A stretch of DNA of 64,000 nucleotides from a virus (IMGVR_UViG_3300042402_002564:66145-130144), one strand, 5' to 3'; positions 11,295-54,757 are shown, counted from the stretch's first letter. Program-made: numbers and translations. The notes: generated by a model not told the origin, from the letters alone.

Positions 11295-11346
11295 CCACCT
11301 GCACCACCCGTGCGGGTAAATTTTGCTGTATAATAATTTTATTGAC

Positions 11347-12755: not shown

Positions 12756-12758
12756 ATT

Positions 12759-14000: not shown

Positions 14001-14030
14001 TCAAATATATAATAAAGATGTTATTTTATA

Positions 14031-14276: not shown

Positions 14277-14282
14277 TTTTAT

Positions 14283-14999
14283 ATGGAAGAAGATTTAAGA
14301 ACTAAACATGCAGACATTTTAAAAGATCCAGAGGGTCCTTTGAATCATTATAATGTCATATATCCAGATGACCCTAGAACAGAAAATTATTTTGATTTCT
14401 GTGGGAATACCATCTATAGGGCATATAATGTATTGAGTTTGGAAGATAGGCAAGGACTATTGGAAGAAATTGATGATGAATTATCTAAAAATCCTAATTG
14501 GGATTTATCTGTAGAAGCTACTAAAGAACTTAGTATTAGAAAATTAAAAAATAAAGAGTGTTGGGTTAACTTCTTTAAGATGGTAAAACATCATTTGTAT
14601 AATTATGCAAAAGTAACAAATAATCCAAAAATTTTAGAATTAAAAATTCAATCTTATTGGGCGAAGAGATTGAGAGATGTCTCTGAAGAAAAATATGCAG
14701 AAGAATTGTATATAAACTACGGAAACACCCACAGTCATCAGCATTTTGATCTGGGATTAATTTTTTACCTACAAAATCCCTCAAGAATTTATGGAACAAT
14801 AATTGAAAATGATGGGAGGGAAGTTATAATTCCTGGGGATGAAAATTCTTTACTGTTACATCATTCTGCGGTGAATCATCAACCAGCACATCCACCTCCG
14901 ATGGTTGCAAAAGATTATTATAGATGTGTCATTGTTGCAGATTTTATGTATCCAGATAAAGATAAAAAAATGAGAATCGCAGATGACAGAAAAAGATAA
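14283..14999 (+). CDS. 2OG-Fe(II) oxygenase-like protein
   Basis: HQHFD (HxD) plus a distal LLLHHSAVNH. Confidence 0.4.
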   Translation: MEEDLRTKHADILKDPEGPLNHYNVIYPDDPRTENYFDFCGNTIYRAYNVLSLEDRQGLLEEIDDELSKNPNWDLSVEATKELSIRKLKNKECWVNFFKMVKHHLYNYAKVTNNPKILELKIQSYWAKRLRDVSEEKYAEELYINYGNTHSHQHFDLGLIFYLQNPSRIYGTIIENDGREVIIPGDENSLLLHHSAVNHQPAHPPPMVAKDYYRCVIVADFMYPDKDKKMRIADDRKR

Positions 15000-15216
15000 A
15001 AAAATCTATAAAAATATTTTTAAAAAAATATTAGATAATAAAAAAGATTCCATGACCTATGAAGAAGGAACATGGTTAATGGAAAGACCCGAATTGATGG
15101 ATTTGGCAAAAAAATTAAATGCCAAAGTGAAAATAATGGCTAGATTTCCAGAGTATAAAAATACAATAGAAGAAATACTTTTTATTCTTGACTTATCTGA
15201 CAGGTTTTTAAGATAA
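14983..15216 (+). CDS. hypothetical small protein
   Basis: ORF overlapping the previous stop. Confidence 0.3.
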   Translation: MTEKDKKIYKNIFKKILDNKKDSMTYEEGTWLMERPELMDLAKKLNAKVKIMARFPEYKNTIEEILFILDLSDRFLR

Positions 15217-15284: not shown

Positions 15285-16427
15285 ATGCACTACAAATTTC
15301 CAACAATTACAAATTTGGATCAGGTTAAAACTGCCATTGAAGGTTATGATGAATTTCGCGTAACTAACAAAGGATTTTATACCGTAGTGAATTATGCTGT
15401 AGCATTCGATAATACTTTTGATATTGTCGATGAGAATGATGTTAATGGAATGATACGTAGAGAATGTAGGGGATTAATTTTTGATGTTGATGGTAATTTA
15501 ATCTCTCGTCCTTATCATAAATTTTTTAATTTGAATGAAAGGAAAGAAACCCATATCGACACAGTTGGATTTGACCTCCACACTGTTCTTGAAAAGATGG
15601 ATGGATCTATGATTAGACCAATTCCTTCTGAATATGGATTTAGACTCGCCACTAAAGCTGGGATTACTGATGTTGCAATAAATGCTGAAATTTTTATTTC
15701 AGATAAACCAGAGTATGCAAATTTTATTAATCATTGTATTTCTAGAAATCTAACCCCAATTTTTGAATGGTGCTCTCGTAAAAACAGAATCGTAGTTGAT
15801 TATCCAGAAGATAAATTAGTTCTTACTGCTTTGAGAAGTATTAAAAATGGTTCTTATTGTTCGTATAATAACCTTCGTCTTTTATCTGAACATTATGATA
15901 TTCCTCTGGTTAAAAAATGGCCAGATAATATGGACATACAACAATTAGTTGAATATGTCCGTAATCTTGAAGATGAGGAAGGTATTGTTCTTCGTTTTGA
16001 TAATGGACATATGTTAAAAATCAAAGCAGAAGAATATGTTCTTCGTCATAAATCTAAAGAACAAATCAGTCAAGAAAAAAATGTCTTGGAAGTAATCATT
16101 GAAGATAAAGTTGATGATGTAATACCATTATTGAGTGATTCTGATGCCAACAGATTAAAATACTTCCAAAAGGCATTTTGGATTAATGTTGACGAGGTTG
16201 CTTTTAATTTAGCAGAAGTTTATCAAAAAGGAAAAAACTATAAAGATAAGAAATCTTTTGCTGTGGAGTTTGTTCAAAAACTTAGTCCTCACTTGCAACC
16301 ATTCATGTATGCAATGAATTCTGGAAAAGGTTCTAAGAGTCTTTTGATAGAATCTATTAAAAAGTCTACTACTTCACAAACTAAGATTGATCAATCACGT
16401 TGGATGTGGGGAAACCTAGTTTGGTAA
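15285..16427 (+). CDS. rnlA: ATP-dependent RNA ligase (T4 Rnl1-like)
   Basis: nucleotidyltransferase motif I EKMDGS (KxDG); ~380-aa size; sits next to the Pnk parts. Confidence 0.7.
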   Translation: MHYKFPTITNLDQVKTAIEGYDEFRVTNKGFYTVVNYAVAFDNTFDIVDENDVNGMIRRECRGLIFDVDGNLISRPYHKFFNLNERKETHIDTVGFDLHTVLEKMDGSMIRPIPSEYGFRLATKAGITDVAINAEIFISDKPEYANFINHCISRNLTPIFEWCSRKNRIVVDYPEDKLVLTALRSIKNGSYCSYNNLRLLSEHYDIPLVKKWPDNMDIQQLVEYVRNLEDEEGIVLRFDNGHMLKIKAEEYVLRHKSKEQISQEKNVLEVIIEDKVDDVIPLLSDSDANRLKYFQKAFWINVDEVAFNLAEVYQKGKNYKDKKSFAVEFVQKLSPHLQPFMYAMNSGKGSKSLLIESIKKSTTSQTKIDQSRWMWGNLVW

Positions 16428-16431
16428 ATTT

Positions 16432-16908
16432 ATGGAAAACGTATCAATAGAACCATATAAAACAATATTAGTTCTTAACGCAAGTTATGAACCAATAAAT
16501 TTTTGTAATTGGAAAAGAGCCGTTGTGCTTTTACTAAAAGAGAAAGCACAATTATTGTCATCTAGAGTCATACGATTGGTAAATTACATAAATTTACCAA
16601 TTTCTAAAATAATTTCATGCAAACCATCTAGGCATTTAATTTACAAAAGAGATGACCACAGATGTCAGTATTGTGGTTCTATAAAACAACTTACAATTGA
16701 CCACGTAATTCCAAAATCTAAAGGTGGTAAAGATACTTGGGAAAATTTAGTGGTTGCTTGTATGCCATGTAATACAAAAAAAGGTGATAGAACTCCAGAA
16801 GAATGGGGAACTCCTCTATATCAAAAACCAAAAGCATTATATAATAAAATGCTAATATCTTTAAAATCTTCTAATGTTCCTGAATGGAAGGAGTACGTTT
16901 ATGCCTGA
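16432..16908 (+). CDS. HNH endonuclease
   Basis: CQYCG...TIDHVIPKSKGG...WENLVVACMPCN HNH core. Confidence 0.75.
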   Translation: MENVSIEPYKTILVLNASYEPINFCNWKRAVVLLLKEKAQLLSSRVIRLVNYINLPISKIISCKPSRHLIYKRDDHRCQYCGSIKQLTIDHVIPKSKGGKDTWENLVVACMPCNTKKGDRTPEEWGTPLYQKPKALYNKMLISLKSSNVPEWKEYVYA

Positions 16909-17377
16909 ATGTGTAATGTTGTGTGGAATTCCTACTTGTGGGAAGTCCACATATGTTAAAAAATTACAATCTTTAAACTATTGGAAAGATGCTGTAGTAT
17001 TATCTACCGACAATTATATTGAGAAGCAGGCACAAAGGATGGGTCTGACTTATAATCAAATTTTTGATGATGTGATTGATGATGCAACTCGGGAACTTGA
17101 ACTTGAGTTCAATATGGCAAAGGACAAGGGAAAAGACATCATTTGGGATCAGACAAACTTATCAATTAAGTCCAGAAAGAAAAAACTTTCTAAACTTCCT
17201 TCCTATTACAGGAGAGAGGCGGTATACTTTGAAATAACATTGGAGGAAGCACTAAAACGAAATGAATGCCGTGAAGGCAAATTCATTCCCAAAAGTATTC
17301 TTCATAGAATGTACCATCAGTTTGAATTTCCAACCTTAGAAGAGGGATTTGATTATGTTGAAAAAATTAAAGTTTAA
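16901..17377 (+). CDS. pnk: polynucleotide 5'-kinase (T4 Pnk kinase domain as a separate ORF)
   Basis: P-loop GIPTCGKST and IWDQTNL (T4 Pnk has ISDTNL); ATG at 16901 overlaps the HNH stop. Confidence 0.7.
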   Translation: MPECVMLCGIPTCGKSTYVKKLQSLNYWKDAVVLSTDNYIEKQAQRMGLTYNQIFDDVIDDATRELELEFNMAKDKGKDIIWDQTNLSIKSRKKKLSKLPSYYRREAVYFEITLEEALKRNECREGKFIPKSILHRMYHQFEFPTLEEGFDYVEKIKV

Positions 17378-17582
17378 ATCTCCATACAATCATCATTTTG
17401 AATATACTAGCGATATTGAACGTATCGTAAAAATCTTTGCCGATCGTGGATATGAGATTTCACATCAAGATGCTGTTCATGCTTGGGAAGAATTTTCTGA
17501 CAGTATGTGTGCAGGTTGGATGTGCTTAGGTGAAGATGATGAAGTCTTTCAAGACGCATTTTATTATTTTGAGGAAGTTTGA
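17349..17582 (+). CDS. hypothetical small protein between the Pnk halves
   Basis: 77-aa ORF overlapping both flanking genes. Confidence 0.3.
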   Translation: MIMLKKLKFKSPYNHHFEYTSDIERIVKIFADRGYEISHQDAVHAWEEFSDSMCAGWMCLGEDDEVFQDAFYYFEEV

Positions 17583-18046
17583 TGGCAGAAAAAAAGAAAA
17601 ATTGTTTTATATTTGACTTAGATGGAACGATTTGTAATGTAAGTCATCGTAGACAATATGTTGTAACCAAACCACGTAACTGGGATGCTTGGAACAAAGG
17701 TCTCATTAATGATGTACCTAACGTAGCAGTTCAAAAGGTATTCCAAGCACTTCGCAATGCTAATGATTACGATACTGATTTGATTATTGTTTCTGGTCGC
17801 TCAGACGATTATAAAGAACAAACGGTCAAGTGGTTGACTGATAATGAAATCTTTTACGATGAAATTTATATGAGAAAGTATAAAGATCATCGGGATGATG
17901 CTGTTGTTAAAGCAGAAATTGCTGACGAAATTGAAAAAACTCACCAAATTCTTGGTGTGTTTGATGACCGTCAGAGGGTTGTGAATATGTGGATTGAGCG
18001 TGGTATCTGGGTGTTCGACGTTGGGCAAGGTAAGGGCAATTTTTGA
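17579..18046 (+). CDS. pnk: polynucleotide 3'-phosphatase (T4 Pnk HAD domain as a separate ORF)
   Basis: FIFDLDGT (DxDGT) and C-terminal FDDRQRVVNMWIERGIWVF (T4 has DDRTQVVEMWRRIGVECW). Confidence 0.7.
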   Translation: MMAEKKKNCFIFDLDGTICNVSHRRQYVVTKPRNWDAWNKGLINDVPNVAVQKVFQALRNANDYDTDLIIVSGRSDDYKEQTVKWLTDNEIFYDEIYMRKYKDHRDDAVVKAEIADEIEKTHQILGVFDDRQRVVNMWIERGIWVFDVGQGKGNF

Positions 18047-18090
18047 ACTGGCACATACAATCCCACATCTGAGTTTTTTTAACCTATAAT
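18045..18090 (+). promoter_or_regulatory. promoter-like region with GAACTGGCACA box and TATAAT
   Basis: GAACTGGCACA at 18045-18055, TATAAT at 18085-18090, ATG at 18112. Confidence 0.4.
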
Positions 18091-18111
18091 CATCTTGTAC
18101 GAAAATTAACA

Positions 18112-18399
18112 ATGAGTTTTTCCAAAACTGTTTCCGTTTTCGCTGCACTTGCAAGTATTTTTGCTGCTGGAGCTACTGGTTGGAAACTTGCAAATTCCCA
18201 ACAAGAAGTTCCTTTGAATCCATTAGACCAAAAAGTAATGGAGTTGGAAAAAAAGATTGAAGAAGTAACAACTGAAAAACCAATTGAGCAAGTGGTACAA
18301 CCACAAGTAGAATTGCAACCTAAACCAACTATACCTCCAGTACCACCACTACCCCCGCTTCCAGCACCTACAGAGGACACAAATGAACAAACTCCGTAA
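18112..18399 (+). CDS. small proline-rich protein with N-terminal signal/TM segment
   Basis: hydrophobic N-terminus VSVFAALASIFAAGA; C-terminal PPVPPLPPLPAP. Confidence 0.4.
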   Translation: MSFSKTVSVFAALASIFAAGATGWKLANSQQEVPLNPLDQKVMELEKKIEEVTTEKPIEQVVQPQVELQPKPTIPPVPPLPPLPAPTEDTNEQTP

Positions 18400-19426
18400 A
18401 CTTGCTTCCATCAAACCTATCACCTATATCAAACCGATTGAAGGTGCTGATGCTATTGAGTGTGCTATTGTTGATGGTGGTTGGCCTGTAGTTGTCAAAA
18501 AAGGTGAGTATAAGGTTGGGGATATTGCCATCTACCTTGAGATTGATAGTTGGGTGCCCCACAAACTTGCTCCATTCCTTAGTAAGGGTCAAGAACCCCG
18601 TGAGTATAATGGTGTAAAGGGTGAGCGTCTTCGTACTGTTAAACTTCGTGGTCAAGTTAGTCAGGGTCTTCTGCTGCCGATTGAACTTACGTTCTGGCGT
18701 GATATTGGCACGGACCTTACAGAATCTCTGGGTATTCAGAAGTGGGAACCGCCCATCCCTGCTCAACTTCAGGGTACGATGAAGGGTAACTTCCCACACT
18801 TCATTCCTAAAACTGATCAAGAGCGTTGCCAAAATCTTCGTAAAGACATCTTTGAGACTCATAAAGAGGAGATTTATGAAGTCACCGTCAAACTTGATGG
18901 TAGTAGCACCACTATCTATGTCAAAGATGGTGAGGTTGGTGTATGTTCGCGGAATATTGACCTCATTGAAACTGAGGGCAATAGTTTCTGGAAAGCAGCA
19001 CGGGAGCAGAATATTATCGAACCTCTTCTTGAATTGTGTAAAGAAAAGGGTGAAGAATATGCTATTCAAGGTGAATTGATTGGTGAAGGTATTCAGGGTA
19101 ATCCTGAAAAAATCAAAGGTCAACGATTCTATTTGTTTGATATTTACAGTATTACCTGTGGTGAATATTTTAAAGCAAATGTTCGATATAGTATTCTCGA
19201 TAAACTAAAGATGCTTGGTGCTGATATTGAGCACGTTCCTATTGTTGATGTTGATGTTCGTGTTGCTCAAGCATACGACAGTATTGATGACCTTCTTGAG
19301 TTTGCTGAGGGTCCATCGTTGAATCCTCAGACCAAACGTGAAGGTCTGGTCTTCAAATCGTGGGAAAGTGACTTTACTTTTAAAGCAATTTCTAACTCTT
19401 ATCTCCTAAAGCATAAAGACCGATGA
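18383..19426 (+). CDS. second RNA ligase (Rnl5/NgrRnl/DraRnl-like with N-terminal OB-like domain)
   Basis: VTVKLDGSS KxDG motif; N-terminal IKPIEGADAIE...VVKKGEYKVGD segment resembles the N-domain of Naegleria/Deinococcus-type ligases; elevated GC. Confidence 0.6.
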   Translation: MNKLRKLASIKPITYIKPIEGADAIECAIVDGGWPVVVKKGEYKVGDIAIYLEIDSWVPHKLAPFLSKGQEPREYNGVKGERLRTVKLRGQVSQGLLLPIELTFWRDIGTDLTESLGIQKWEPPIPAQLQGTMKGNFPHFIPKTDQERCQNLRKDIFETHKEEIYEVTVKLDGSSTTIYVKDGEVGVCSRNIDLIETEGNSFWKAAREQNIIEPLLELCKEKGEEYAIQGELIGEGIQGNPEKIKGQRFYLFDIYSITCGEYFKANVRYSILDKLKMLGADIEHVPIVDVDVRVAQAYDSIDDLLEFAEGPSLNPQTKREGLVFKSWESDFTFKAISNSYLLKHKDR

Positions 19427-20223
19427 AAGTAAAAGTTGTATCCGATTTACATTTAGAATGTTGTGAATACGGTCACGGTGTTCCTGACCTTGGAGAGGGA
19501 GAAGTCTTAATTCTTGGTGGTGATATTCTCTGTGCTCGACACTTCAAAAAAGACGGAAACCTTCACAAGGTTTATACCGACTTCTTGAAGAAGTGTGCCG
19601 ACAACTTCATGCACGTTCTGTATATCGCAGGAAATCATGAAGCATATGGATACAACTATGAAGGAACTTGGAATGTTCTCAAAGAAAACCTTCCCAATGG
19701 TATTCATCTGATGGAAGATAGTGTAGTGAAGATTGCGGACTGGGTTTTTATTGGTTCGACTTTTTGGACTGATTTCCGCAATGGAAATGCCCTGGAAATG
19801 ATGGAAGCAGCACAGTGTATGAATGATTATAAGACCATTCGCATTACTCCAAAGTATCGCAAGATGAATCCTGATGATACTTATGCCTTTCATAACAAAT
19901 CAAAGCAATTTCTACTGGATCAGTTAGAACTTTTTAAAAATCAAAAAATTTGGGTTCTCACGCACCATGCACCATCTTATCAATCAGTTCATGAGCAGTA
20001 TAAAACAAGTGGTATTGCGAATGGTGCATATGTCAGCGATCTTGATGATTTTATTTTAGAACATCCAGAGATTAGAATTTGGTCTCATGGACATACACAT
20101 AACTCATTTGATTACAAAATTGGTGATTGTAGAGTTGTCTGTAATCCCAGAGGGTACTATAATGGATATAATAATTCTGGTTTGAATTTAGATTTTGATC
20201 CAAATTTTGAAATTGAGTTATGA
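19423..20223 (+). CDS. calcineurin-like metallophosphoesterase
   Basis: VVSDLHLE, GNHE and GHTHNSFD metal-binding motifs. Confidence 0.7.
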   Translation: MKVKVVSDLHLECCEYGHGVPDLGEGEVLILGGDILCARHFKKDGNLHKVYTDFLKKCADNFMHVLYIAGNHEAYGYNYEGTWNVLKENLPNGIHLMEDSVVKIADWVFIGSTFWTDFRNGNALEMMEAAQCMNDYKTIRITPKYRKMNPDDTYAFHNKSKQFLLDQLELFKNQKIWVLTHHAPSYQSVHEQYKTSGIANGAYVSDLDDFILEHPEIRIWSHGHTHNSFDYKIGDCRVVCNPRGYYNGYNNSGLNLDFDPNFEIEL

Positions 20224-20417
20224 ATTATAAAACTTTTGATGATTGGTTTGATGAACTGGAAGGTTATTCTTATCGTTCTGAAAGATTTTGGGATGATTTT
20301 GAATACGCAGCAAAAACTAAAGATTATCCCATGATCAAAAAATGGTTGAAGACTGCATGGGAAGTGGGATATGAGACATCCGAAAATAAATTTTATGGTG
20401 GAACAAAAAATGATTGA
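20220..20417 (+). CDS. hypothetical small protein
   Basis: ATGA-coupled; ends with ...ND-stop inside an ATGATTGA junction. Confidence 0.4.
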   Translation: MNYKTFDDWFDELEGYSYRSERFWDDFEYAAKTKDYPMIKKWLKTAWEVGYETSENKFYGGTKND

Positions 20418-20577
20418 TACTGCTAGATTTCCTTATCCAAATTTCCCATTTAGATTAGAATACGAAGAAAACAAAGTTAAAAGAGTTTGTCATTTTGAGT
20501 GTAAAGAACATCTCAATAAATATTTGGAACGTCATAAACTTAAAAAGAATAAAGTTACAATCGAAACTCGTAAATGA
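20410..20577 (+). CDS. hypothetical small protein
   Basis: start inside the 8-nt ATGATTGA overlap; the track's upstream extension overlaps the previous gene. Confidence 0.35.
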   Translation: MIDTARFPYPNFPFRLEYEENKVKRVCHFECKEHLNKYLERHKLKKNKVTIETRK

Positions 20578-21407
20578 AAATATTTAAAGTCCCTCACATA
20601 GAATTACATGTAACGCATACTTGCAATTTTAGTTGTGAAGGATGTTCTCATTATTCTAATCATGGACATTCTGGGTCTTTAACTTTAAAAGAATGTGATG
20701 AATGGTTGTATTCTTGGAGTAGAAGATTACAACCAGAACTATTCACTATACTTGGTGGTGAGCCAACTCTTAATAAAAATTTGATTGATATAATTTATCT
20801 GGTTCGGATGATGTGGCCAGATACTGCAACTGCTATTGATCTTGTATCAAATGCTAGTTTTTTACATACACATCCAAATTTACCGCAGGCATTATTGGAT
20901 ACTGACAGTACTTTAGCAATATCTATTCATAGTAAAGTACATGCTGGATATGTAAATAAATTTAAAAAAGGTTATAGATTGACAAAAGAATGGAGAAAGC
21001 AATACGGAATTAATTTAGAATTTTGGGATTTTACCACAGATACCTGGACTCCTCAATATAATGGATTTGGGAATAATATGCTTCCCTATGAAGATAATAA
21101 TCCAAGAAAGAGTTGGGAGAAGTGTCTATCTAAAAAAGCTCTACAAATACATGAGGGTAAATTGTGGAAATGTCCACCATTGGCATATTTACCAATGCAA
21201 GCAAAAAAATATAATCTTGACAAAAAATGGGATCCTTATTTAAAATATAAACCATTAGATTCGGATTGTTCTGATCAAGAACTTGAAGAATTTTTAAATA
21301 AAGAAGATGAATGTTTTTGTTCTATGTGCCCTGCAAATATGGATAATCCTTATAAAAAAAATGATCCAACTCTTCCAGTAAGTTATTGGGAGAAGTTAAA
21401 TTCATGA
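20574..21407 (+). CDS. radical SAM protein
   Basis: CNFSCEGC (CX3CX2C) at residues 17-24 and a GGEPTL glycine motif. Confidence 0.65.
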   Translation: MKIFKVPHIELHVTHTCNFSCEGCSHYSNHGHSGSLTLKECDEWLYSWSRRLQPELFTILGGEPTLNKNLIDIIYLVRMMWPDTATAIDLVSNASFLHTHPNLPQALLDTDSTLAISIHSKVHAGYVNKFKKGYRLTKEWRKQYGINLEFWDFTTDTWTPQYNGFGNNMLPYEDNNPRKSWEKCLSKKALQIHEGKLWKCPPLAYLPMQAKKYNLDKKWDPYLKYKPLDSDCSDQELEEFLNKEDECFCSMCPANMDNPYKKNDPTLPVSYWEKLNS

Positions 21408-22828
21408 TTACCTGGGGAATATCATCAGAGAGTCATAATGCTGCACTTTCTGTATTTGTTAATGATAGTCTAGTCTTCGCAAGCGAAAGTGAAAGATTCA
21501 GTGGTATAAAAAATGATGCTTATTTAAATAATGGCATTATTGACTATGCACTAAAGTTTGGAAAACCAGAATTGGTATGCTGGTATGAGAATCCATATAA
21601 GAAAACGTTTAGACAACTTCTTGCAGGTCAAGGATGGATTCAGAACGTCAAAAAGTATGTTGATGTTCCAATCAAGTATTATGACCATCACTATACTCAT
21701 GCTTGTGCTGGTTACTTTACCAGTCAGTTTGACGAGTGTTGTGTGGTGGTTATTGATGCTATAGGAGAATTCCAAACACTTACTATCTGGGAAGCAAGAG
21801 GTAATAAATTAAAACTTAAATTTCAACGTAAATATCCACACAGCGTTGGACTTTGGTATTCTGCAATGACACAAAGGTGTGGATTAAAACCAAATGAAGA
21901 AGAGTATATCCTCATGGGCATGTCTGCTTATGGGGATAAAACACGTTATGAAGATGATATCTATAAAGATTTCATAGGATTTAGAACAGCAACCTTTAAA
22001 AAGAATTTACATAAAGGATGTGTTGATTGGAGACCAGATATTAAAAACACTTTTGATATCGCTGCTGCAACTCAAAACATTTATGAAACAATTTTTAGAG
22101 ATATTATGCAAGTAGCATCCAATAAAGTAAAAAGTAAAAATTTAGTTCTAATGGGTGGATGTGCGTTAAATTGTGTTGCAAATCCAATTGCATATTATTA
22201 TTTTGACAATTTATGGATTATGCCTGCACCTGGAGATAATGGGTCTGCCATTGGTTCTGTGCTTGCACATAAAAAGAAACATATTGATTGGCATGGACCT
22301 TATCTTGGATATTATATTAAATCAGTTGCATCAAACGAAGAAATTGTTAACCACTTAATGGATTATGGTCTTTGTGGAGTTGCAAGAGGTTGTGCAGAGT
22401 TTGGTCCTAGGGCACTGGGGAATCGTAGTTTATTTGCAGACCCTAGAGATCCACAAATTAAATCAATGGTCAACAATATTAAACAAAGACAACAGTTTAG
22501 GCCATTTGCACCAGTAATTATGGAAGAATATGTACACGATTACTTTAGAATGCCTACAAATTCTTCACCATACATGCAATATGCTGTAAAATGTAGATAT
22601 TCTAAAAAGTTTCCAGCAATTGTTCACATAGATAAAACAAGTAGAGTTCAAACTGTTAATAGACAACAAAATACAGAACTTTATGATCTTTTAAAGATGT
22701 GGAATGAAAAAACAGGTTGTCCTATGTTATTGAATACTAGTTTGAATATTAAAGGGAAACCGATGGTAAATGATGAAAAAGATTGTAAAGAATGGGAAGA
22801 AACTTATGGGGTTAAAATATTCTCATGA
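21404..22828 (+). CDS. carbamoyltransferase (NodU/CmcH/TobZ family)
   Basis: N-terminal ITWGISSESHNAALSVFVNDSLVFASESERFSGIKND matches the ILGIS...HDSAAAL...AAQEERFTRKKHD signature; ~475 aa; ATGA overlap with the rSAM stop. Confidence 0.7.
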   Translation: MITWGISSESHNAALSVFVNDSLVFASESERFSGIKNDAYLNNGIIDYALKFGKPELVCWYENPYKKTFRQLLAGQGWIQNVKKYVDVPIKYYDHHYTHACAGYFTSQFDECCVVVIDAIGEFQTLTIWEARGNKLKLKFQRKYPHSVGLWYSAMTQRCGLKPNEEEYILMGMSAYGDKTRYEDDIYKDFIGFRTATFKKNLHKGCVDWRPDIKNTFDIAAATQNIYETIFRDIMQVASNKVKSKNLVLMGGCALNCVANPIAYYYFDNLWIMPAPGDNGSAIGSVLAHKKKHIDWHGPYLGYYIKSVASNEEIVNHLMDYGLCGVARGCAEFGPRALGNRSLFADPRDPQIKSMVNNIKQRQQFRPFAPVIMEEYVHDYFRMPTNSSPYMQYAVKCRYSKKFPAIVHIDKTSRVQTVNRQQNTELYDLLKMWNEKTGCPMLLNTSLNIKGKPMVNDEKDCKEWEETYGVKIFS

Positions 22829-23562
22829 ATATTATAGATAATTTAAACAATAAAAACTTTTTTCCTATTGATAAACCAAATAACAAATTTTGGTATGACC
22901 AAGATACAAAAGAACGATATATTCATAATTTAAAAGTTCAACCAGAAGAATGGCATTATAGAGATAAAATAGTTTATTATTTGACAAATTCTTTTGGATA
23001 TAGAACTAAGCCATTTAAAGATATTGATTGGAGAAAATGTATTGTTTTATTTGGGTGTTCTTACATTTACGGTGTTGGTAGTGCAGAAGATGAAACTGTA
23101 ACTGGATATTTGGAACAAATAACTGGAATTCCTGTAATTAATATGGGAGCACCTGGATCTTCACCAACCTTTTCTTTACATAATTCTGGAATTTTGAGTG
23201 CAAAATATCCAAATCCAAAAGCAGTTGTTTATGGTTGGTCTTCTCAATATAGATGTCCTTTTTATACTAAAAATGAAGTTATTCATTGTGGTAATTGGTT
23301 AAAAGATTCTAAAAAAATGGGAGAATCGTGGAATAGTAATGAAGAACATCCTGCAGTAAATTTAAAATTATCATCTATTATTTCTAAAGAAATGTGGAAT
23401 AATAGAACAAAATATTATGAATTTACATTCTTTAAGACAGTTTCGGACGTTTTAAATTGTGATTATATAAAACAAGTTGATTATGCAAGAGATTTGGGAC
23501 ATTCTGGAAAAGAAACTAATAAAATTGCTGCTGAAACTATTGCTAAAAATTTGAACTTGTGA
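22825..23562 (+). CDS. hypothetical protein, possibly SGNH/GDSL-like hydrolase; paralog of 24018..24824
   Basis: shared block FGCSYIYGVG...ITGIPVINMGAPGSS with its paralog; GCS in the position of GDS. Confidence 0.4.
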   Translation: MNIIDNLNNKNFFPIDKPNNKFWYDQDTKERYIHNLKVQPEEWHYRDKIVYYLTNSFGYRTKPFKDIDWRKCIVLFGCSYIYGVGSAEDETVTGYLEQITGIPVINMGAPGSSPTFSLHNSGILSAKYPNPKAVVYGWSSQYRCPFYTKNEVIHCGNWLKDSKKMGESWNSNEEHPAVNLKLSSIISKEMWNNRTKYYEFTFFKTVSDVLNCDYIKQVDYARDLGHSGKETNKIAAETIAKNLNL

Positions 23563-23617
23563 TAAAATTTAATTTTTAAAACAAACACTATGGCAACAAG
23601 AACTTATACTCAAAAAG

Positions 23618-23908
23618 ATGGGACTATTTGGGAATGGAAAGAAACTTCCGAACTTCTCAGCATTCTTGCCCAAATCCATAGCCAAAAAAATAATGAGCAA
23701 CAAAAATCTAATTGACGAATCATTTTATATCAAACAATCCCAATGGGGAACATGGAGGTCATTTGATGTAAACGGGAAAGAATTAATCACTGCATTAAAT
23801 GAAGAGAATTGTATAAGTGCCACAAGATTTTACTTAAAAGGTGTGCAGGAAGGGTGGAGTAATGTTGATTCTGTTAAATATGAAGGCACTGTGGGTGGCA
23901 AATTATAA
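23618..23908 (+). CDS. hypothetical protein
   Basis: ORF between the paralogs; an alternative 40-aa frame starts at 23590. Confidence 0.3.
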   Translation: MGLFGNGKKLPNFSAFLPKSIAKKIMSNKNLIDESFYIKQSQWGTWRSFDVNGKELITALNEENCISATRFYLKGVQEGWSNVDSVKYEGTVGGKL

Positions 23909-24017
23909 TGAGTAATTTAATTCAAAAGATTATTATACATATTAGTGAATATATTGAAAAAATAAAACTAAAAAGATTAGAGAAAAAAATTAAAAAAGAA
24001 GATAACTTCATATATAA

Positions 24018-24824
24018 ATGATAAACCGATTTAACTTAAAATTTAATAATAGAAATATTATTAAATCAATTAGAAATAATCAATTTTTACCCCTTGCAAA
24101 TCATACAGTTTATAATGAAAATGGATATATACCTGCTAATAGGTTAACTCTAAAGGGAACTTGGGATTATTCTGGAACAGATAACCAAGAAAAATATTAT
24201 GAACATTTACAAACACAACCTGAAGATTGGTATTATCGTCATAATAAAGTAAAATATACTTTAAATTCTGAAGGATATAGAACTAAGGAATTTGATGAAT
24301 TAGATTGGAAAAATTCTATCGTTATGTTTGGGTGCTCGTATGTATTTGGAACTGGAGTTGATGATAAACATACTATTTCTTCTTTTTTAGAGGAGATAAC
24401 TGGTATTCCCGTTATTAACATGGGTGTAGGTGGGTCATCTATTCAATTGGCACTGCATAATTCCATGATTTTAAATGATCGTTATGGACCACCTGCAGCT
24501 GTTGTATATGGATGGACTTCATTAATGAGGTATCTTGTATATCACCCACTTTATTTTGATAATAAAATACCTACAGACAGCGTAAAAGTAAAACCTGCTG
24601 AGCATCTGGTTCCTTTTAACATGATGAATGTTAAAATAGTTCGTAATCTTTGGAAGGATAAATGTAAATATTATGAATTTAGTCTTTTTGATACGACAGC
24701 AAAAATTTTAAATTGCGACTTTTATCAACCAAAAGACGATTATGCAAGAGACTTAAGGCATTGTGGTATAGAATCAAATAAAGAATTTGCAGAACTTATA
24801 AATGTAAATTTATCACTATTATGA
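24018..24824 (+). CDS. hypothetical protein, paralog of 22825..23562
   Basis: FGCSYVFGTG...ITGIPVINMGVGGSS; same order of conserved blocks (EGYRTK, DW..IV.FGCSY, AVVYGW). Confidence 0.4.
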   Translation: MINRFNLKFNNRNIIKSIRNNQFLPLANHTVYNENGYIPANRLTLKGTWDYSGTDNQEKYYEHLQTQPEDWYYRHNKVKYTLNSEGYRTKEFDELDWKNSIVMFGCSYVFGTGVDDKHTISSFLEEITGIPVINMGVGGSSIQLALHNSMILNDRYGPPAAVVYGWTSLMRYLVYHPLYFDNKIPTDSVKVKPAEHLVPFNMMNVKIVRNLWKDKCKYYEFSLFDTTAKILNCDFYQPKDDYARDLRHCGIESNKEFAELINVNLSLL

Positions 24825-24963
24825 ACTATCACATATTAGACCCAACAACTCCCTGGTATGAATTTTTATCTTATCAAGAATGTTGTCTTAGTTTGGGAGT
24901 TCCTTGTAGAATGGGAAGTTTTTTAAGATATCATGCATATTTAAAAGAGATAGGGATAAAATA

Positions 24964-25236
24964 ATGATTAAAAATATATTCAATAAATTTTTTGATCGTT
25001 TTTTAAAAGATTATGACTTAAAAACTTATAATATAAATTTGGTAGATAGGAAGAATGAAAGAATTTCTCTCGCAGATGAAATTGCAAACCTTCATTCTAG
25101 AATAAGATATCTTGAAAGAGAAAATGTTTGTATGTCAAATGCAATGTATGAGATGGAGAACAGACTACAAGCACAAATTGACAAAATTAATCCTACAGTG
25201 TTAGATTTAAAGAACTTTAGTTTGGGAGACACTTAA
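24964..25236 (+). CDS. hypothetical small protein
   Basis: ORF; coiled-coil-like. Confidence 0.35.
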   Translation: MIKNIFNKFFDRFLKDYDLKTYNINLVDRKNERISLADEIANLHSRIRYLERENVCMSNAMYEMENRLQAQIDKINPTVLDLKNFSLGDT

Positions 25237-25427
25237 TGTACGAGTCTTTAACAGAATTCGAAAGAGCACTTGCTCGTTTTGGAGATAAAGTTCAACTGAT
25301 AGTTGGACTTGAAATTGGAGATAAAATGAGTCCTGAAATTGCATATCAGGAAATCAAAGAGATGTTGAAAGAACTTAAAAAACTTCGTAAAAAAGAAAAA
25401 TCTAATTGGGAAGAAGATGACAAATAA
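25236..25427 (+). CDS. hypothetical small protein
   Basis: start overlaps the previous stop. Confidence 0.35.
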   Translation: MYESLTEFERALARFGDKVQLIVGLEIGDKMSPEIAYQEIKEMLKELKKLRKKEKSNWEEDDK

Positions 25428-25599
25428 AAAAGATAGTTTAAGAGTAACTGAAGAAAAAGATGGTAGTTTTACCGTTGAATGGGACTCAGATGACCCAGCA
25501 TACTCTTGGTTAAGTACAAAAACAGAAGAGGAATTGACAGAAATTTTAACAGAGCAGATTGAAAATTATTTAAATCAACTTAAAAATAATGAGCGATAA
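25417..25599 (+). CDS. hypothetical small protein
   Basis: overlap-coupled ORF. Confidence 0.35.
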   Translation: MTNKKDSLRVTEEKDGSFTVEWDSDDPAYSWLSTKTEEELTEILTEQIENYLNQLKNNER

Positions 25600-25843
25600 A
25601 GTAATCAAATGGTCTTTACCTGTACAATATGATCCAGAATCTGGTGATTATTTTATCTCTTTTCCAGAAGATCTTTTACATGCTGCAAATTTAAAAGAAG
25701 GTGACCAAGTATTTTGGGTTGATAATGGCGACAAGACTTTTACAATAAAAAAAGTAAAAGAAGATGCACCAAAAACTTATCAGGATATGATTGCTGATGG
25801 GTGGGAAATGACTGTAGATGGATTCTGGATAAAGGAGAATTAA
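25589..25843 (+). CDS. hypothetical small protein
   Basis: overlap-coupled ORF. Confidence 0.35.
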   Translation: MSDKVIKWSLPVQYDPESGDYFISFPEDLLHAANLKEGDQVFWVDNGDKTFTIKKVKEDAPKTYQDMIADGWEMTVDGFWIKEN

Positions 25844-25888
25844 AATTACAATAAATAAGTAAATAAAAGAAAATAATATCGTTATAAA

Positions 25889-26449
25889 ATGGCAGTATTA
25901 ACCGCAACTGGTATTCTATTTAATGATAGTACGTCATTAAATTCAAGATATGATGTTATAGCACAATCATCAGTAGCAATTTTTTATCAAGCTTCGGCAC
26001 CTACTGGGTGGACTAAAGTAACAACACATAATGATAAGGCACTTAGAGTTGTTAGTGGGACTGGTGGCGGATTTGGATATGGTGGAGTATCTGGTGCAGG
26101 AGGAATAACATTTACTTCTGCATTCCCTTCTAATTTAAAAAATCTCAGTATTCCAATTAGTGTTAGTGCTGGAATTGCTGGAACAGTTGGTAATACAACT
26201 CTTTCTGTTTCGCAAATTCCAAATCATACTCACGATAGCTTAACTGGTGGCACTAGTTCTGCAGCATCTGGTGGTGCTTCATTTAGAACTCCAGGAACTA
26301 ATGCTACTGGTGGAGTAGTAAGTCCTACAGGAACAGGAGGAGCACACAACCACCCCTTTACGGGAAGTGTTGGGATTACTTCAACTGCAACTGGATCTTT
26401 GGATTTAAGAGTCCAATATATAGATGTAATTATCTGCAGCTTCGATTAA
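25889..26449 (+). CDS. tail-collar-domain fibre-like protein
   Basis: C-terminal IPNHTHD...GGAHNHPF...VQYIDVII matches the phage tail collar / MdpB-type motif (mPaHsH...ahnn...ylvlnyiI). Confidence 0.5.
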   Translation: MAVLTATGILFNDSTSLNSRYDVIAQSSVAIFYQASAPTGWTKVTTHNDKALRVVSGTGGGFGYGGVSGAGGITFTSAFPSNLKNLSIPISVSAGIAGTVGNTTLSVSQIPNHTHDSLTGGTSSAASGGASFRTPGTNATGGVVSPTGTGGAHNHPFTGSVGITSTATGSLDLRVQYIDVIICSFD

Positions 26450-26450
26450 T

Positions 26451-27008
26451 ATGGCATCTTTAACTAGTGGCGGGATAAGATTTAGTTTAACTGATTTCAC
26501 CAATATAATTGAATCTTTTTATTGGATGTATCCTGCGGGGACTAAAAAGGTATTTTATCAAGCAGAAGCACCAACTGGTTGGGTAAAAGATACAACTCAA
26601 AATAATAAAATGTTAAGAGTTGTTAGTGGAAGTGGTGGAGTTTCTGGTGGAACAATTTCAGCATCTAATGCCTTTATATCTACAGGAACTGAAGTATCTT
26701 TCCCATTTGCTGGTTCTTATCCCGCAAGTGGTACTGTTGGTAATACTACTCTTTCATTAGGACAACTTCCAAATCACACTCATGAAGGAACTATGGGTTC
26801 AAATGGAGGTTCTTCTGCAACTCCATTCAGTAATGCTGGTTCTAGAACTGTTTTTGGTAGTGTTGCGACTAGTGGTATGCTAGAATCTACTGGTGGAGGT
26901 TCTCATACACATCCTTGGTCTGGTACACTAAACTTAAATGCTAATATTACTAGCACTACAGATCTTAGTGTGCAATATGTTGATGTGATTATTTGCACAT
27001 TATCATAA
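26451..27008 (+). CDS. tail-collar-domain fibre-like protein (tandem paralog)
   Basis: LPNHTHEG...GGSHTHPW...VQYVDVII; starts 2 nt after the paralog. Confidence 0.5.
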   Translation: MASLTSGGIRFSLTDFTNIIESFYWMYPAGTKKVFYQAEAPTGWVKDTTQNNKMLRVVSGSGGVSGGTISASNAFISTGTEVSFPFAGSYPASGTVGNTTLSLGQLPNHTHEGTMGSNGGSSATPFSNAGSRTVFGSVATSGMLESTGGGSHTHPWSGTLNLNANITSTTDLSVQYVDVIICTLS

Positions 27009-27046
27009 ATATGTTATACTAATTATTAAAATCCCGTGTATTAATT

Positions 27047-27388
27047 ATGAAAATTGAGAATGGAAAATATTGTCCTCTTCTTAAAAAAGATTGTATTGGA
27101 TTGAAATGTTCTTGGTATACTCAAGTTAGAGGCGTAAATCCTAATACAGGGCAAGAAGTTGATGAATGGTCGTGTGCTATTACTTGGCTTCCTATGATGT
27201 TAATTGAAAATTCTCAGCAACAAAGGTCTACAGGTGCTGCTGTTGAATCATTTAGAAATGAAATGGTTAAAGCAAATCAAACCAACATTAATGTTTTATC
27301 TGCTGCAGCACAAATGCTTCAAGCAACTATGGATGAAAACACAAATAAAATTCTACCAACAGATGTAAAAGAGGTAACAGATCAATGA
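27047..27388 (+). CDS. hypothetical protein
   Basis: 113-aa ORF. Confidence 0.4.
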   Translation: MKIENGKYCPLLKKDCIGLKCSWYTQVRGVNPNTGQEVDEWSCAITWLPMMLIENSQQQRSTGAAVESFRNEMVKANQTNINVLSAAAQMLQATMDENTNKILPTDVKEVTDQ

Positions 27389-28161
27389 GAGTAACTGTTA
27401 TTTACCCTGACAAATTTATCAGTGTTGATGGCAAAGGAATGTATTTTGCTGAAAACTGGCCTTTTGAGGAAACTGATATTCACGCAATTCAGTGGAATGG
27501 AGATAAGGGGGAATTAGAATATACTACACCAATTCCAAATAAAGAAATTACAAATAAATCAGAAATTAAAAAATATGTAGATTTGTTCACTGAAGGATAT
27601 CAGAAGTGGATGAAGGAACAAGAGATTCTTGCAGAAATTGAAAAAGAAAAATTGATGACATGGGAAGATGCCATGAAGGAACTTGAACTTCAATTAGATG
27701 TGATGCAAAAGAATCATGAATTTGAATTGGAACAAATGCTAAAGGAACAAGATAAGCATTTGGAAGGAGTTAAAGAAGAATTCGAACTACAAGTAGAACA
27801 AATCTATAATAAAGTTCAAGAGAATCAACTTAATCTTTATTATGCAGAAAATGCAATTGAGGATGAATCTAAAGAAAAAAGTTATGACAGCATGACTATT
27901 TTTGATAGTAATATTGATCCATCTCTATTTGATGATAGCTTCGACCCAACAGAGGATGATAGTGAAGAAGATGGTGAAGAAACTGAAATTGAAGAGTCTT
28001 CAGATATTCAAGACTTTAAAAACTTTGATTTAAGTCTTCTGGAAGATGAATTTAACTTAGAAATGCTTTTTGAAGACGAAGACACCCCAATTGTAAATGA
28101 AATTGAAGAACTTATTGAACAAGAACAACAAGTAGACGCTGCAGAAATTCCAGACAATTAA
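27385..28161 (+). CDS. hypothetical protein with highly acidic C-terminus
   Basis: ATGA overlap; D/E-rich tail. Confidence 0.45.
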   Translation: MRVTVIYPDKFISVDGKGMYFAENWPFEETDIHAIQWNGDKGELEYTTPIPNKEITNKSEIKKYVDLFTEGYQKWMKEQEILAEIEKEKLMTWEDAMKELELQLDVMQKNHEFELEQMLKEQDKHLEGVKEEFELQVEQIYNKVQENQLNLYYAENAIEDESKEKSYDSMTIFDSNIDPSLFDDSFDPTEDDSEEDGEETEIEESSDIQDFKNFDLSLLEDEFNLEMLFEDEDTPIVNEIEELIEQEQQVDAAEIPDN

Positions 28162-28176
28162 TAAACTACTTTTATT

Positions 28177-29343
28177 ATGAATCAATCTTTAGTTGAAAAC
28201 GGATATATTATAATACCAAATTTTATATGTTCGGAACGTGCAAAAAATTTATCCAAAGAATTTGCACAAGTATGTAAAGAAAATAATATAGATGGAGATG
28301 AGCAAGTTCCGACTTCAAAATCTCAATATGACTATATTTCTTTTTTAGAATTACTTTGTGAAAAAACTCCTGAAGTATCATCTATTATTGGCGAAACTGT
28401 TTTACCAACTTATAGTTATGCTAGAGTATATGAAAAAGGAAGCACTTTACCATCGCATACTGACAGAAAAGAATGTGAAATATCAATAACTATCAATTTA
28501 GATTCTGATGTATCTTGGCCTATTTGGGTCATGACACCAGATAAAAAGCAAAAAAGAATCATTTTAAATCCAGGGGATGGTCTTCTTTACTTGGGCATAG
28601 ATATACCTCATTGGAGAGAAGAATTAAAAGGAAATTATTGCACTCAAGTATTTTTACATTATGTAAGAAGTAGAGGACCTAATGTTGCCTTGTATTTTGA
28701 TAAAGAGAATAGAAAATTTTGCAACTTCAATGAGATTAAAAAAAGTCCAGAAGTGATGATAAAAACTGAAAATTATAAGAGTAAAAATCCATTGGATGAA
28801 TACATTAAAATATATTACTCTGCAATTCCAGATTATGTTTGTGATTTGATTTTAGAAGAGTATAAAAATTGTGAAGATTGGAATCCAAGTAGAACAGGAA
28901 ACGGAGAAGTAAATAAATTCGTTCGCAATTGTGATACTATTGGATTGTCGATGGCAAATGTTATCAACAAAAATTTAGAAACCAGAAAGAAAATCGATAC
29001 CTTATTATTTGAACATTCTGGTAATACCCTTAAAAAATATGTTGAAGAATTTCCACACTGCCAATTAATTTCTGATAGTGGATATGATCTCTTGAGATAT
29101 GATATGGGAGGATATTATTCTATTCATACAGATTCTCATAAAACTACACCTAGAACAGTGTCCTGTTCTTTTAATTTGAATGATGATTATGAAGGTGGAG
29201 AATTTGCATTCTTTGATAGAGAATTAATCATTAAAGCACCAAAAGGGTCTGCAATTGTATTTCCATCGAATTTTATGTATCCTCATGAAATTATGGAAGT
29301 TAAATCTGGATCCAGATATTCTATTGTGACTTGGTTCGTTTAA
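28177..29343 (+). CDS. two-domain 2OG-Fe(II) oxygenase (P4H-like)
   Basis: HxD motifs in both halves (PSHTDRKE; SIHTDSHK) and a C-terminal PHEI...SRYSIVTWF (H...RxS). Confidence 0.55.
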   Translation: MNQSLVENGYIIIPNFICSERAKNLSKEFAQVCKENNIDGDEQVPTSKSQYDYISFLELLCEKTPEVSSIIGETVLPTYSYARVYEKGSTLPSHTDRKECEISITINLDSDVSWPIWVMTPDKKQKRIILNPGDGLLYLGIDIPHWREELKGNYCTQVFLHYVRSRGPNVALYFDKENRKFCNFNEIKKSPEVMIKTENYKSKNPLDEYIKIYYSAIPDYVCDLILEEYKNCEDWNPSRTGNGEVNKFVRNCDTIGLSMANVINKNLETRKKIDTLLFEHSGNTLKKYVEEFPHCQLISDSGYDLLRYDMGGYYSIHTDSHKTTPRTVSCSFNLNDDYEGGEFAFFDRELIIKAPKGSAIVFPSNFMYPHEIMEVKSGSRYSIVTWFV

Positions 29344-29401
29344 CCGAACATTGACAGAATAAAAATATTAATCTATTATTAAATTAACTTTATATTAACC
29401 A

Positions 29402-29623
29402 ATGGCACTATCAAAATCTGTTGAAGAATCTTTAAGAGAAGCAGAGTCTTCCCTTAGAAATGCCCTTGCTTTTGCAGCAAGACAAGAAAAACCCTTTGTT
29501 GGTAAGCATATTGCCTGTATGATTGCTGACCTTGATGCCCTTATTAAAACTGATGAATTAATGGATAAACTTGAGAGTAGACTAAAAGGAGATAAGGGGA
29601 CGTGGGGACCTTTTGGTGAATAA
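29402..29623 (+). CDS. hypothetical small protein
   Basis: ORF. Confidence 0.35.
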   Translation: MALSKSVEESLREAESSLRNALAFAARQEKPFVGKHIACMIADLDALIKTDELMDKLESRLKGDKGTWGPFGE

Positions 29624-29676
29624 TAAGATTTGTAACATCAATAATTAAGAGACTATTAAAAATTCCATAGATAATC

Positions 29677-29868
29677 ATGGAATGTGTTAAAATCAACACA
29701 GTTGCACAAAAACAAATGGAATTAACACAAGAAGAGTGGAACGAATTGGTTGCTCTTAAAGACGCAATTAATTACGATCCATCTCAAGTCCATTATGAAA
29801 AAATGGAAAGGTTTACTGAATTATTTGTTAAAACTTTGGAAGGTAAAGGTGACAATTGCCCAATGTGA
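29677..29868 (+). CDS. hypothetical small protein
   Basis: ORF. Confidence 0.35.
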   Translation: MECVKINTVAQKQMELTQEEWNELVALKDAINYDPSQVHYEKMERFTELFVKTLEGKGDNCPM

Positions 29869-29898
29869 TACATAATTAATAAAGGTATCATAAAATAA

Positions 29899-30312
29899 AT
29901 GGATACAAATCTTTTCACTCAAACTAGTGATGAAAAATCTATTTTGTTAAAAACAGGGTTCTTATGTTTAAAATTGACTAAAAATTATTTTAATGAAGTT
30001 TCTTCTATTGCTAAGAAATTAATTAGAGATAATATTGATGTAAGAAGTAACAAGTTCAAATTAAAAGAACTTGATAATTACCTTGATTTGGGTTCTTTTT
30101 TTATTGAGGAAACAAAAAAATATTATAAAGTTTATCAATTTACAGATGAATCTGATTCAAAAATTCACTGTTTTGTTGATAAAGAGAGTGGTTTAGTTTA
30201 TAAACCACTCAATAGAAATTCTCCTAATAAAAGAAGAGTGTATGAAATTGATAAGTGTATATTACATGCTGATTGGAGAGGGTATTATTTGAATGATGTG
30301 ACACCTCAGTAA
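29899..30312 (+). CDS. hypothetical protein, paralog of 33359..33814
   Basis: C-terminal KIHCFVDKESGLVYKP...HADWRGYYL versus SVHCFIDKKTGEVYKS...NADWAGSYL. Confidence 0.45.
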   Translation: MDTNLFTQTSDEKSILLKTGFLCLKLTKNYFNEVSSIAKKLIRDNIDVRSNKFKLKELDNYLDLGSFFIEETKKYYKVYQFTDESDSKIHCFVDKESGLVYKPLNRNSPNKRRVYEIDKCILHADWRGYYLNDVTPQ

Positions 30313-54688: not shown

Positions 54689-54704
54689 TGTGCGTCAGAT
54701 TCCC

Positions 54705-54733: not shown

Positions 54734-54757
54734 GTACACAGTTCGCACAAAGTTCTC

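Follow-up and report, generated by a model that had tools for sequence, protein, structure and literature searches.

A twitch-type radical-SAM enzyme and an SGNH-like family form a recurrent viral cassette, with an optional O-carbamoyltransferase

The genes of the cassette

Cyanomyoviruses are among the most abundant viruses of the ocean, and their hypervariable regions carry many oxygenases, carbamoyltransferases and 'lipopolysaccharide (LPS)-like' genes that have awaited a role from the first genomes onwards (PMC3037559). The present report concerns a gene cassette in a 64,000-nucleotide stretch of viral DNA (IMGVR_UViG_3300042402_002564:66145-130144), the whole of which is called the window here. 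On its plus strand lie a radical S-adenosylmethionine (SAM) enzyme (rSAM) of 277 aa (20574..21407), an O-carbamoyltransferase (CT) of 474 aa (21404..22828), and two SGNH-like proteins, paralog A of 245 aa (22825..23562) and paralog B of 268 aa (24018..24824). An earlier note, made from the sequence alone, had placed four open reading frames (ORFs) at 20574-24824, and all four are present. The superfamilies that make up the cassette are known; what is new is an unmodelled, virus-only SGNH-like family coupled to twitch-type rSAMs. The unit can be defined concretely as a twitch rSAM followed by an SGNH-like protein, with the CT as an optional gene between them. The host genome is that of a marine T4-like phage whose relatives are cyanomyovirus-like; GenBank phages, searched for near-identical DNA, gave no match to the region and no close relative. 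The DNA is AT-rich, with 30-36% GC across most of its length, and carries three tRNA genes.

The rSAM has the motif C17-x3-C21-x2-C24 and matches Pfam PF04055 (Radical_SAM) at 31.0 bits, above the gathering score of 29.5, so that the CX3CX2C radical-SAM assignment of the earlier note stands. In a family alignment (n=31), this motif, the G61-G62-E63-P64 stretch (GGEP) and four further cysteines (C184, C200, C249 and C252) are all invariant. The protein shows the twitch-type architecture, namely a partial TIM barrel and a short C-terminal twitch domain with cysteine ligands for an auxiliary [4Fe-4S] cluster. Structural comparison placed it nearest to SpeY (PDB 7WZV; score 21.9, 20% identity), the twitch rSAM dehydrogenase of spectinomycin biosynthesis, with SuiB (13.6), BlsE (12.4), viperin (12.4), SkfB (12.2), BtrN (12.1) and CteB (11.0) more distant. 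The sequence profile also points to SpeY (E 7e-16), and C184 and C200 align with SpeY cysteines. A SpeY-type reaction is predicted; the window enzyme differs from SpeY in being viral rather than actinomycete, in having no aminocyclitol pathway genes nearby, and in having a CT and SGNH-like proteins as partners.

Other identities for the rSAM were considered and set aside. The models of the anaerobic ribonucleotide reductase (RNR) activase NrdG scored far under their cutoffs (TIGR02495, 20.7 bits against 131; TIGR02491, 19.1 against 126), and the enzyme classes of the cassette are co-conserved, which disposes of the possibility, raised in the earlier note against its own proposal, of an RNR activase beside a CT with no co-conservation. 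Models of viperin, MoaA and QueE also scored far under their cutoffs, with no full-length match to viperin or pVip, and PADLOC returned no defence-system match other than generic rSAM similarity to pVip. The best GenBank ortholog, from phage S-SCSM2R (41% identical), is annotated 'SkfB/NifB/PqqE family maturase', while the context of a bacterial rSAM homolog (L015) was uninformative. Related contigs carry a second SpeY-like rSAM (rSAM-1) of ~272 aa, which shares ~50% identity with that of the window and lies directly upstream of and overlapping the ortholog of window gene 14283-14999. In the window rSAM-1 has been lost (14276-14283) but its partner, of 238 aa, has been kept; the partner is 54-73% identical to its orthologs, matches no known family and does not belong with the SGNH-like proteins. 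The corresponding partner gene in contig L013 (7809-8570) was likewise tested as an SGNH-like member and rejected, as was a 232-aa ORF of contig L004 that proved to be an rSAM fragment.

The CT was confirmed as the carbamoyltransferase of about 475 aa that had been proposed, with matches to both Carbam_trans_N (PF02543; 127 bits, E 1.5e-36) and Carbam_trans_C (PF16861; 175 bits, E 1.3e-51) and to phrog_1601 (3e-102). TobZ-type enzymes reportedly have a Kae1-like N-domain and a YrdC-like C-domain; on this scheme the N-domain, described as 'YrdC/Kae1-like' in the earlier note, is Kae1-like, and the YrdC-like part is the C-domain. The nearest solved relatives are NovN (2e-44), the carbamoyltransferase 7xb6, GdmN and TobZ (2e-32); NovN, GdmN and TobZ are ATP- and carbamoyl-phosphate-dependent O-carbamoyltransferases of sugar or natural-product hydroxyls. 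Like these enzymes and NodU and CmcH, the window CT has the HxxxH / D / GDxG metal motif (readable as HHYTH, VIDAIGE and PGDNG) and EFGPRALGNRS; it differs from them in being ~100 aa shorter (474 versus 570-700 aa) and in having Val in place of TobZ W408. An assignment to NodU proper was rejected (NCBIfam NF041651, 144.8 bits against 1000). The closest CTs found are those of contig L018 (69% identical) and, as the best GenBank match, of the Ralstonia jumbo phage RsoM2USA (46%). In Marine virus AG-345-D19 (MH319720.1; L002, 8528-10774), the CT is split into two ORFs and permuted, the C-terminal YrdC-like part coming before the N-terminal Kae1-like part; these ORFs lie directly after thyX and ahead of a SpeY-like rSAM.

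A comparative study of cyanomyoviruses lists the CT merely as a sporadic gene of unknown role (PMC3037559). One phage CT of the NodU/TobZ type has been characterised in the MetaGPA study (eLife 2021), where it converted 5-hydroxymethylcytosine (5hmC) to 5-carbamoyloxymethylcytosine in DNA, RNA and dNTPs (PMC8670742). In that study the signature of a 5hmC CT was a co-occurring thymidylate-synthase-like hydroxymethylase, while the CTs of unmodified contigs adjoined glycosyltransferases, and the discriminating positions were TobZ W408, G421 and R423 (PMC8670742). At these positions the window CT has V/G/R, the solved small-molecule CTs W/G/R and the 5hmC enzyme I/C/T; the residues of the modified clade are absent from the text of PMC8670742. 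G421 and R423 are kept in all 41 CTs of the window clade, and position 408 is L, V or I across the clade. The window CT resembles the 5hmC enzyme in superfamily, in being phage-encoded and in its aliphatic residue at position 408, but is 24% identical to it, has G421 and R423 rather than C and T, and has no thymidylate-synthase-like gene nearby. No thymidylate-synthase homolog of the hydroxymethylase (ThyA) family was seen in window ORFs 150 aa or longer or in the Pfam gene lists of related flanks. The partners of the window CT are an rSAM and SGNH-like proteins, and the MetaGPA study mentions neither 'radical SAM' nor 'SGNH' (PMC8670742).

The start of paralog A overlaps the stop of the CT. 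Paralogs A and B are 41% identical (E 3e-65), and the closest relatives of B are the four tandem copies of L018. They were described in the earlier note as two tandem paralogs; they are true paralogs, but not strictly tandem, as two small genes lie between them. Neither has a Pfam, PHROG or NCBIfam match, and a tblastn search with A against GenBank phages gave none. An alignment of the family (n=28) shows invariant S79 (in GCS), G108 (NMG), N120 (HN) and R222-D223-x-x-H226, which correspond to the SGNH tetrad and its Asp in the right order (Ser in block I, Gly in II, Asn in III, His in V). The predicted structure (pLDDT 95.5) is a high-confidence SGNH fold, flavodoxin-like, with many carbohydrate esterases among its structural neighbours. 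The family thus shares fold and ordered catalytic residues with the SGNH/GDSL hydrolases (CE2/CE3 and CgnD), but has GCS rather than GDS, a conserved N-terminal extension of ~70 residues of its own (W43, Y52, N55, R60), no sequence-model match, and a distribution confined to viruses. The rSAM, CT and SGNH-like proteins have no signal peptide or hydrophobic N-terminus, and all three enzyme types look cytoplasmic.

The SGNH-like family is large, unmodelled and seen in viruses only. A word-indexed protein search had returned 30 clusters, and the tiny family that this implied was overturned by an exhaustive profile search, which found 8,338 cluster representatives at E <= 1e-3, 2,705 at <= 1e-10 and 572 at <= 1e-30. 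A scan of IMG/VR confirmed 247 loci. In 185,579 bacterial and archaeal species genomes (GTDB) no member was found, in a scan that was pattern-based and could therefore miss divergent cellular members. A 602-aa protein of an uncultured Caudovirales phage (BFVD A0A6J5LTW5), annotated as radical-SAM, gives a Foldseek match to the SGNH-like model (E 2e-9 over 183 columns) and looks like a natural fusion of an rSAM and an SGNH-like protein. The window paralogs gave no Pfam match to the DUF6071 proteins (PF19547), and pairwise BLAST and single-sequence hhalign gave nothing; profile-profile hhalign against the DUF6071 trio of RsoM2USA gave E 0.0012 at a probability of 19%, with blocks I and II in register, so that a remote kinship is possible at the level of sequence profiles.

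Co-conservation across viral genomes

Hidden Markov models (HMMs) of the families defined here were applied to the 80 best viral loci, within 6 kb. As these loci are similarity-ranked and partly redundant, the proportions are descriptive only. The order rSAM-CT-SGNH was found, without variation, in 30 of the 80; CT-SGNH was found on three truncated contigs, at least one rSAM without a CT at 32 loci, and the SGNH-like gene alone at 15, mostly on short contigs. Overall, 65 of the 80 (81%) are counted with an rSAM in that distance and 33 (41%) with a CT. In the most abundant Tara lineage, an SGNH-like gene (hhalign E 8e-75) comes straight after the ortholog of the window rSAM (64-66% identical), with no CT; therefore, the conserved core is the rSAM with the SGNH-like protein, and the CT is an optional insert. 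The co-conservation of three enzyme classes bears out the suggestion of the earlier note that these genes form a coherent multi-enzyme module, and an undescribed one, and a literature search found no paper describing an rSAM-CT-SGNH cassette.

Examples of the cassette range from marine T4-like phages to a jumbo phage of soil. Contigs L018 and L019 encode an N-terminal-twitch rSAM, a CT and four tandem SGNH-like paralogs. In RsoM2USA, three DUF6071 paralogs (with 'NGCSM' and a C-terminal His) precede the CT, and the rSAM is also of the N-twitch type (NF033640). The RsoM2USA set, whose genes are annotated hypothetical, resembles that of the window in its three enzyme classes, its single co-oriented cluster and the expansion of a small hydrolase-like gene, but its rSAM belongs to another subfamily and its DUF6071 proteins are linked to the window family weakly. 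L018 bridges the two, having an rSAM 35% identical to that of RsoM2USA together with a CT and SGNH-like proteins of the window type.

Enzymes of sugar metabolism accompany more distant members of the family. The rSAM ortholog of S-SCSM2R has five glycosyltransferases around it, along with an amidinotransferase and a DegT-like aminotransferase. The distant SGNH-like member of L017 has as neighbours two GT7 glycosyltransferases, an epimerase/dehydratase and a DegT aminotransferase; that of L009 has an epimerase/dehydratase nearby. A Pfam scan of 106 otherwise unassigned same-strand neighbours found Radical_SAM in 28 (seven with SPASM), 2-oxoglutarate (2OG) oxygenase in four, NAD epimerase/dehydratase in three, UDP-Glc/GDP-Man dehydrogenase in three, APS kinase in two and aminotransferase in one. 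On uncultured viral contigs (L048-L099; also P0021, ERZ1305449), a single SGNH-like gene sits amid four to six radical-SAM/SPASM genes in a recurrent order, [~326 aa]-[SGNH-like]-[~197 aa]-[~320-360 aa]-[N-twitch rSAM]-[rSAM], in some cases with UDP-sugar dehydrogenase or epimerase genes. We know of no described system like these multi-rSAM operons.

Upstream of the cassette, at 15285-20223, lies a set of RNA-repair genes (an Rnl1-like ligase, a PNK-like kinase, a HAD_PNKP phosphatase, a PHA02142/Rnl2-type ligase and a metallophosphoesterase), split by an HNH endonuclease gene (16432-16908). The earlier note had every gene from 15285 to 23562 on the plus strand and joined by ATGA or 8-nt overlaps. 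As to strand this is correct, and extends to 24824; ATGA 4-nt overlaps also join the three cassette junctions (68-aa ORF to rSAM, rSAM to CT, and CT to paralog A). Overlaps are not found at every junction, since gaps of 4 nt separate the Rnl1 and HNH genes and 65 nt the HAD phosphatase and 95-aa genes, and the 8-nt overlap of the HNH and kinase genes exists only with an alternative start at 16901. Further gaps, of 55 and 109 nt, lie around the DUF7468 gene, between the paralogs. A scan for sigma-70 promoter-like sites (64 versus a shuffled expectation of 69.3) and terminator-like sites (6 versus 4.6) found neither in excess of that expectation and was uninformative as to a single transcription unit.

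A protein-level synteny map of the window against five related contigs found 10046-15216 and 20574-30312 collinear with them, while the Rnl1, PNK-like kinase, HAD phosphatase, Rnl2-like ligase and phosphoesterase had no counterpart in any syntenic relative. The HNH gene between them does have orthologs, 61-63% identical, in L013 and L004. From this pattern, the RNA-repair genes seem to have been inserted on both sides of an HNH endonuclease gene that was already resident in the hypervariable region, and to have no relation to the cassette; gene content suggests that the insertion was recent and HNH-associated. In the close relative L007, the rSAM, CT, SGNH-like paralog and DUF7468 genes are kept with quite different upstream genes, and the same is true of L004-6, L013/14 and L018/19; together with the 30 IMG/VR loci noted above, these are instances of the cassette without any repair gene. 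The gene lists of related flanks contain no RNA-repair genes, and of the 33 IMG/VR loci with a CT, none came up through one. Occurrence of the cassette in genomes that lack the repair genes is an outcome that the earlier note had itself named as refuting its proposal. The argument of the earlier note for a nucleic-acid pathway, which was drawn from the operon shared with the RNA-repair genes, therefore falls. Dense gene packing in a phage hypervariable region is no proof of a common pathway, and a tempting misreading is corrected here.

Chemistry and substrate of the cassette

It is possible, and is the reading we favour tentatively at a little short of an even chance, that this is a virus-specific cassette acting in the cytoplasm of the infected cell to tailor the hydroxyls of a sugar-like substrate. 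Its basis is the folds, catalytic residues, co-conservation, gene order and distant sugar-enzyme company, from which we infer the chemical steps and the substrate class: a sugar, cyclitol or nucleotide-sugar, or a sugar already on a carrier. Sugar-type hydroxyl chemistry is favoured because of the sugar-enzyme neighbours of distant members, the SpeY-like fold of the rSAM and the likeness of the CT to TobZ and NovN. Drawing on SAM and its own [4Fe-4S] clusters, the SpeY-like rSAM would act by hydrogen abstraction and convert a secondary alcohol into a ketone, or might carry out a related radical rearrangement. The CT would then form a carbamoyl-adenylate from carbamoyl phosphate and ATP and O-carbamoylate a hydroxyl, and the Ser-His(-Asp) triad of the SGNH-like protein would remove or transfer an acyl (ester) group. 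The number of SGNH-like copies (one, two or four) may match differing positions or substrates. The acceptor could be a free metabolite, a sugar linked to DNA, or a glycan of the virion or host.

Several observations weigh against this reading. The likeness of the rSAM to SpeY is structural, at 20% identity, and leaves the reaction unfixed. For the SGNH-like protein the top structural match is CgnD, which hydrolyses peptides in a pathway for ribosomally synthesised and post-translationally modified peptides (RiPPs), and the further radical-SAM proteins among the neighbours, some with SPASM domains, are compatible with peptide chemistry. The sugar-enzyme neighbours stem from the more distant family members: no glycosyltransferase or nucleotide-sugar gene lies within ~9 kb of the cassette in the window, L004, L007 or L013, and the sole glycosyltransferase of the window is a GT11-like ORF 12 kb away (36810-37910). 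The descriptive standing of the neighbour survey counts on the same side.

Thymidine hypermodification pathways include radical-SAM enzymes, and a role for the cassette in DNA hypermodification can be pictured in which the CT would carbamoylate a hydroxymethyl-pyrimidine, or a sugar on one, and the rSAM and SGNH-like proteins would elaborate or edit the adduct. This is unlikely on balance. The experimentally demonstrated activity of a phage CT on 5hmC in DNA, RNA and dNTPs (PMC8670742) speaks for it, as do the position of the AG-345-D19 CT and rSAM directly after thyX, one dCMP-deaminase domain among the 106 neighbours and the aliphatic residue at the W408 position. Yet the window CT is no nearer to the 5hmC enzyme than to TobZ or NovN, the canonical G421 and R423 hold throughout its clade, the ThyA-family hydroxymethylase is missing from the ORFs and flanks searched, the core pair survives without a CT in the most abundant lineage, and the glycosyltransferase neighbours reported for CTs are those of unmodified contigs (PMC8670742). 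Rather unlikely, too, is a RiPP-like or virion-protein modification, in which the rSAM would modify a peptide, the CT would carbamoylate a hydroxylated residue and the SGNH-like protein would act as a CgnD-like hydrolase. There is a parallel in crocagin biosynthesis, which combines a 2OG oxygenase, CgnD and a carbamoyltransferase; 2OG-Fe(II) oxygenases are plentiful in the region, distant loci have up to five or six rSAM/SPASM genes, the S-SCSM2R ortholog carries its maturase annotation, and a conserved 41-aa ORF lies directly 3' of the SGNH-like gene in cyanomyovirus-like lineages. A RiPP-precursor role for that ORF is not supported, however: it lacks Cys and any leader/core pattern, and no copy was found in L018. 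The RiPP maturases SuiB, SkfB and CteB fall far under SpeY as matches to the rSAM, which, to judge from its length of 277 aa and its model, is too short for a peptide-recognition (RRE) domain; CgnD stands barely above generic GDSL esterases (13.9 versus 12.6) at 14% identity; and the sugar-nucleotide enzymes of distant loci are left unexplained.

NodU-type CTs decorate oligosaccharides, and the fallback of the earlier note was a polysaccharide or LPS carbamoylation/deacylation module. Its glycan-type direction is better supported than a nucleic-acid pathway, by the SpeY-like rSAM and the sugar-enzyme neighbourhoods; LPS or polysaccharide would be a candidate acceptor, the enzymes themselves looking cytoplasmic. 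Remodelling of the host envelope (O-acyl or carbamoyl groups of LPS, capsule or peptidoglycan) to block superinfection, as has been proposed for cyanophage 'LPS genes', is a doubtful explanation: clusters of cyanophage LPS genes are documented, with unknown function (PMC3037559), but the proteins have no signal peptides or membrane segments, and absence from the bacterial and archaeal genomes scanned would be unusual for host-acquired envelope enzymes. Since rSAM and ATP/carbamoyl-phosphate chemistry require the cytoplasm, such enzymes would act on cytoplasmic precursors, and this explanation therefore merges with the favoured tailoring of sugar hydroxyls. Very improbable is an accessory role in RNA or tRNA modification or repair, in which the cassette and the adjacent ligases, kinase/phosphatase and phosphoesterase would act on host or phage tRNA. 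The CT domains are of Kae1/YrdC ancestry, the genes are densely packed with the repair genes on the same strand of the window, and the 5hmC CT also acts on RNA (PMC8670742). Against this, L007, L013, L004 and L010 retain the cassette and flanking backbone with no counterpart of the five repair genes, no CT-bearing IMG/VR locus led back to a repair gene, and the position of these genes around a resident HNH endonuclease gene fits a mobile insertion.

A bolder reading, which we consider improbable, is that the cassette yields a novel oxidised and carbamoylated sugar or nucleoside adduct that camouflages phage DNA or the virion, with the SGNH-like protein as a dedicated acyl- or carbamoyl-handling enzyme, obligate with the twitch rSAM. 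Identification of the substrate would give a function to thousands of viral 'hypothetical' proteins, and could expose new radical sugar chemistry or a new decoration of virion or DNA.

Other features of the window and its relatives

Between the two SGNH-like paralogs lie two small plus-strand genes. The 41-aa ORF (23590..23715; MA.RTFTQK.G..WEWEETPE..ALKQLH..NEQ..N) is hydrophilic, has the motif WEWEETPE and shares 23 nt with the start of the DUF7468 gene. It occurs in all cyanomyovirus-like relatives, the CT-less lineage included, with orthologs in L007, L020, L013, L010 and L004. The DUF7468 protein (PF24272, 8.6e-25) keeps its position in L004, L007, L013 and L020. Its ORF opens at 23618, but the likely start is at 23693 (23693..23908), because its orthologs are 69-71 aa long and the Pfam match spans residues 30-96 of the longer frame.

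Downstream, two adjacent paralogous ORFs rich in Gly, Ser and Thr (25889-26449 and 26451-27008; ~185 aa) are kept in all related contigs and have no Pfam match; they have in common the motifs APTGW, LRVVSG, GNTTLS..Q.PNHTH and QY.DVIIC. The hypervariable region of relatives includes a SET-domain protein, faint JmjC-like matches and many 2OG-Fe(II) oxygenases (L010-L012, 2658-2951; L004/L013, ~805-1239), which hints at protein-modifying activities there. Elsewhere in the window are a Dam-type N6-adenine DNA methyltransferase (39512-40324), the protein with the GT11-like glycosyltransferase domain mentioned above, and tandem 321-aa paralogs (52219-53184 and 53195-54160) with weak matches to methyltransferase folds (Cons_hypoth95/MTS). 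Over the last part of the window, at 54001-64000, the GC content climbs to 0.41-0.49, against ~0.30-0.36 before, and the GC skew changes sign, which together suggest a different genome module or a changed gene orientation.

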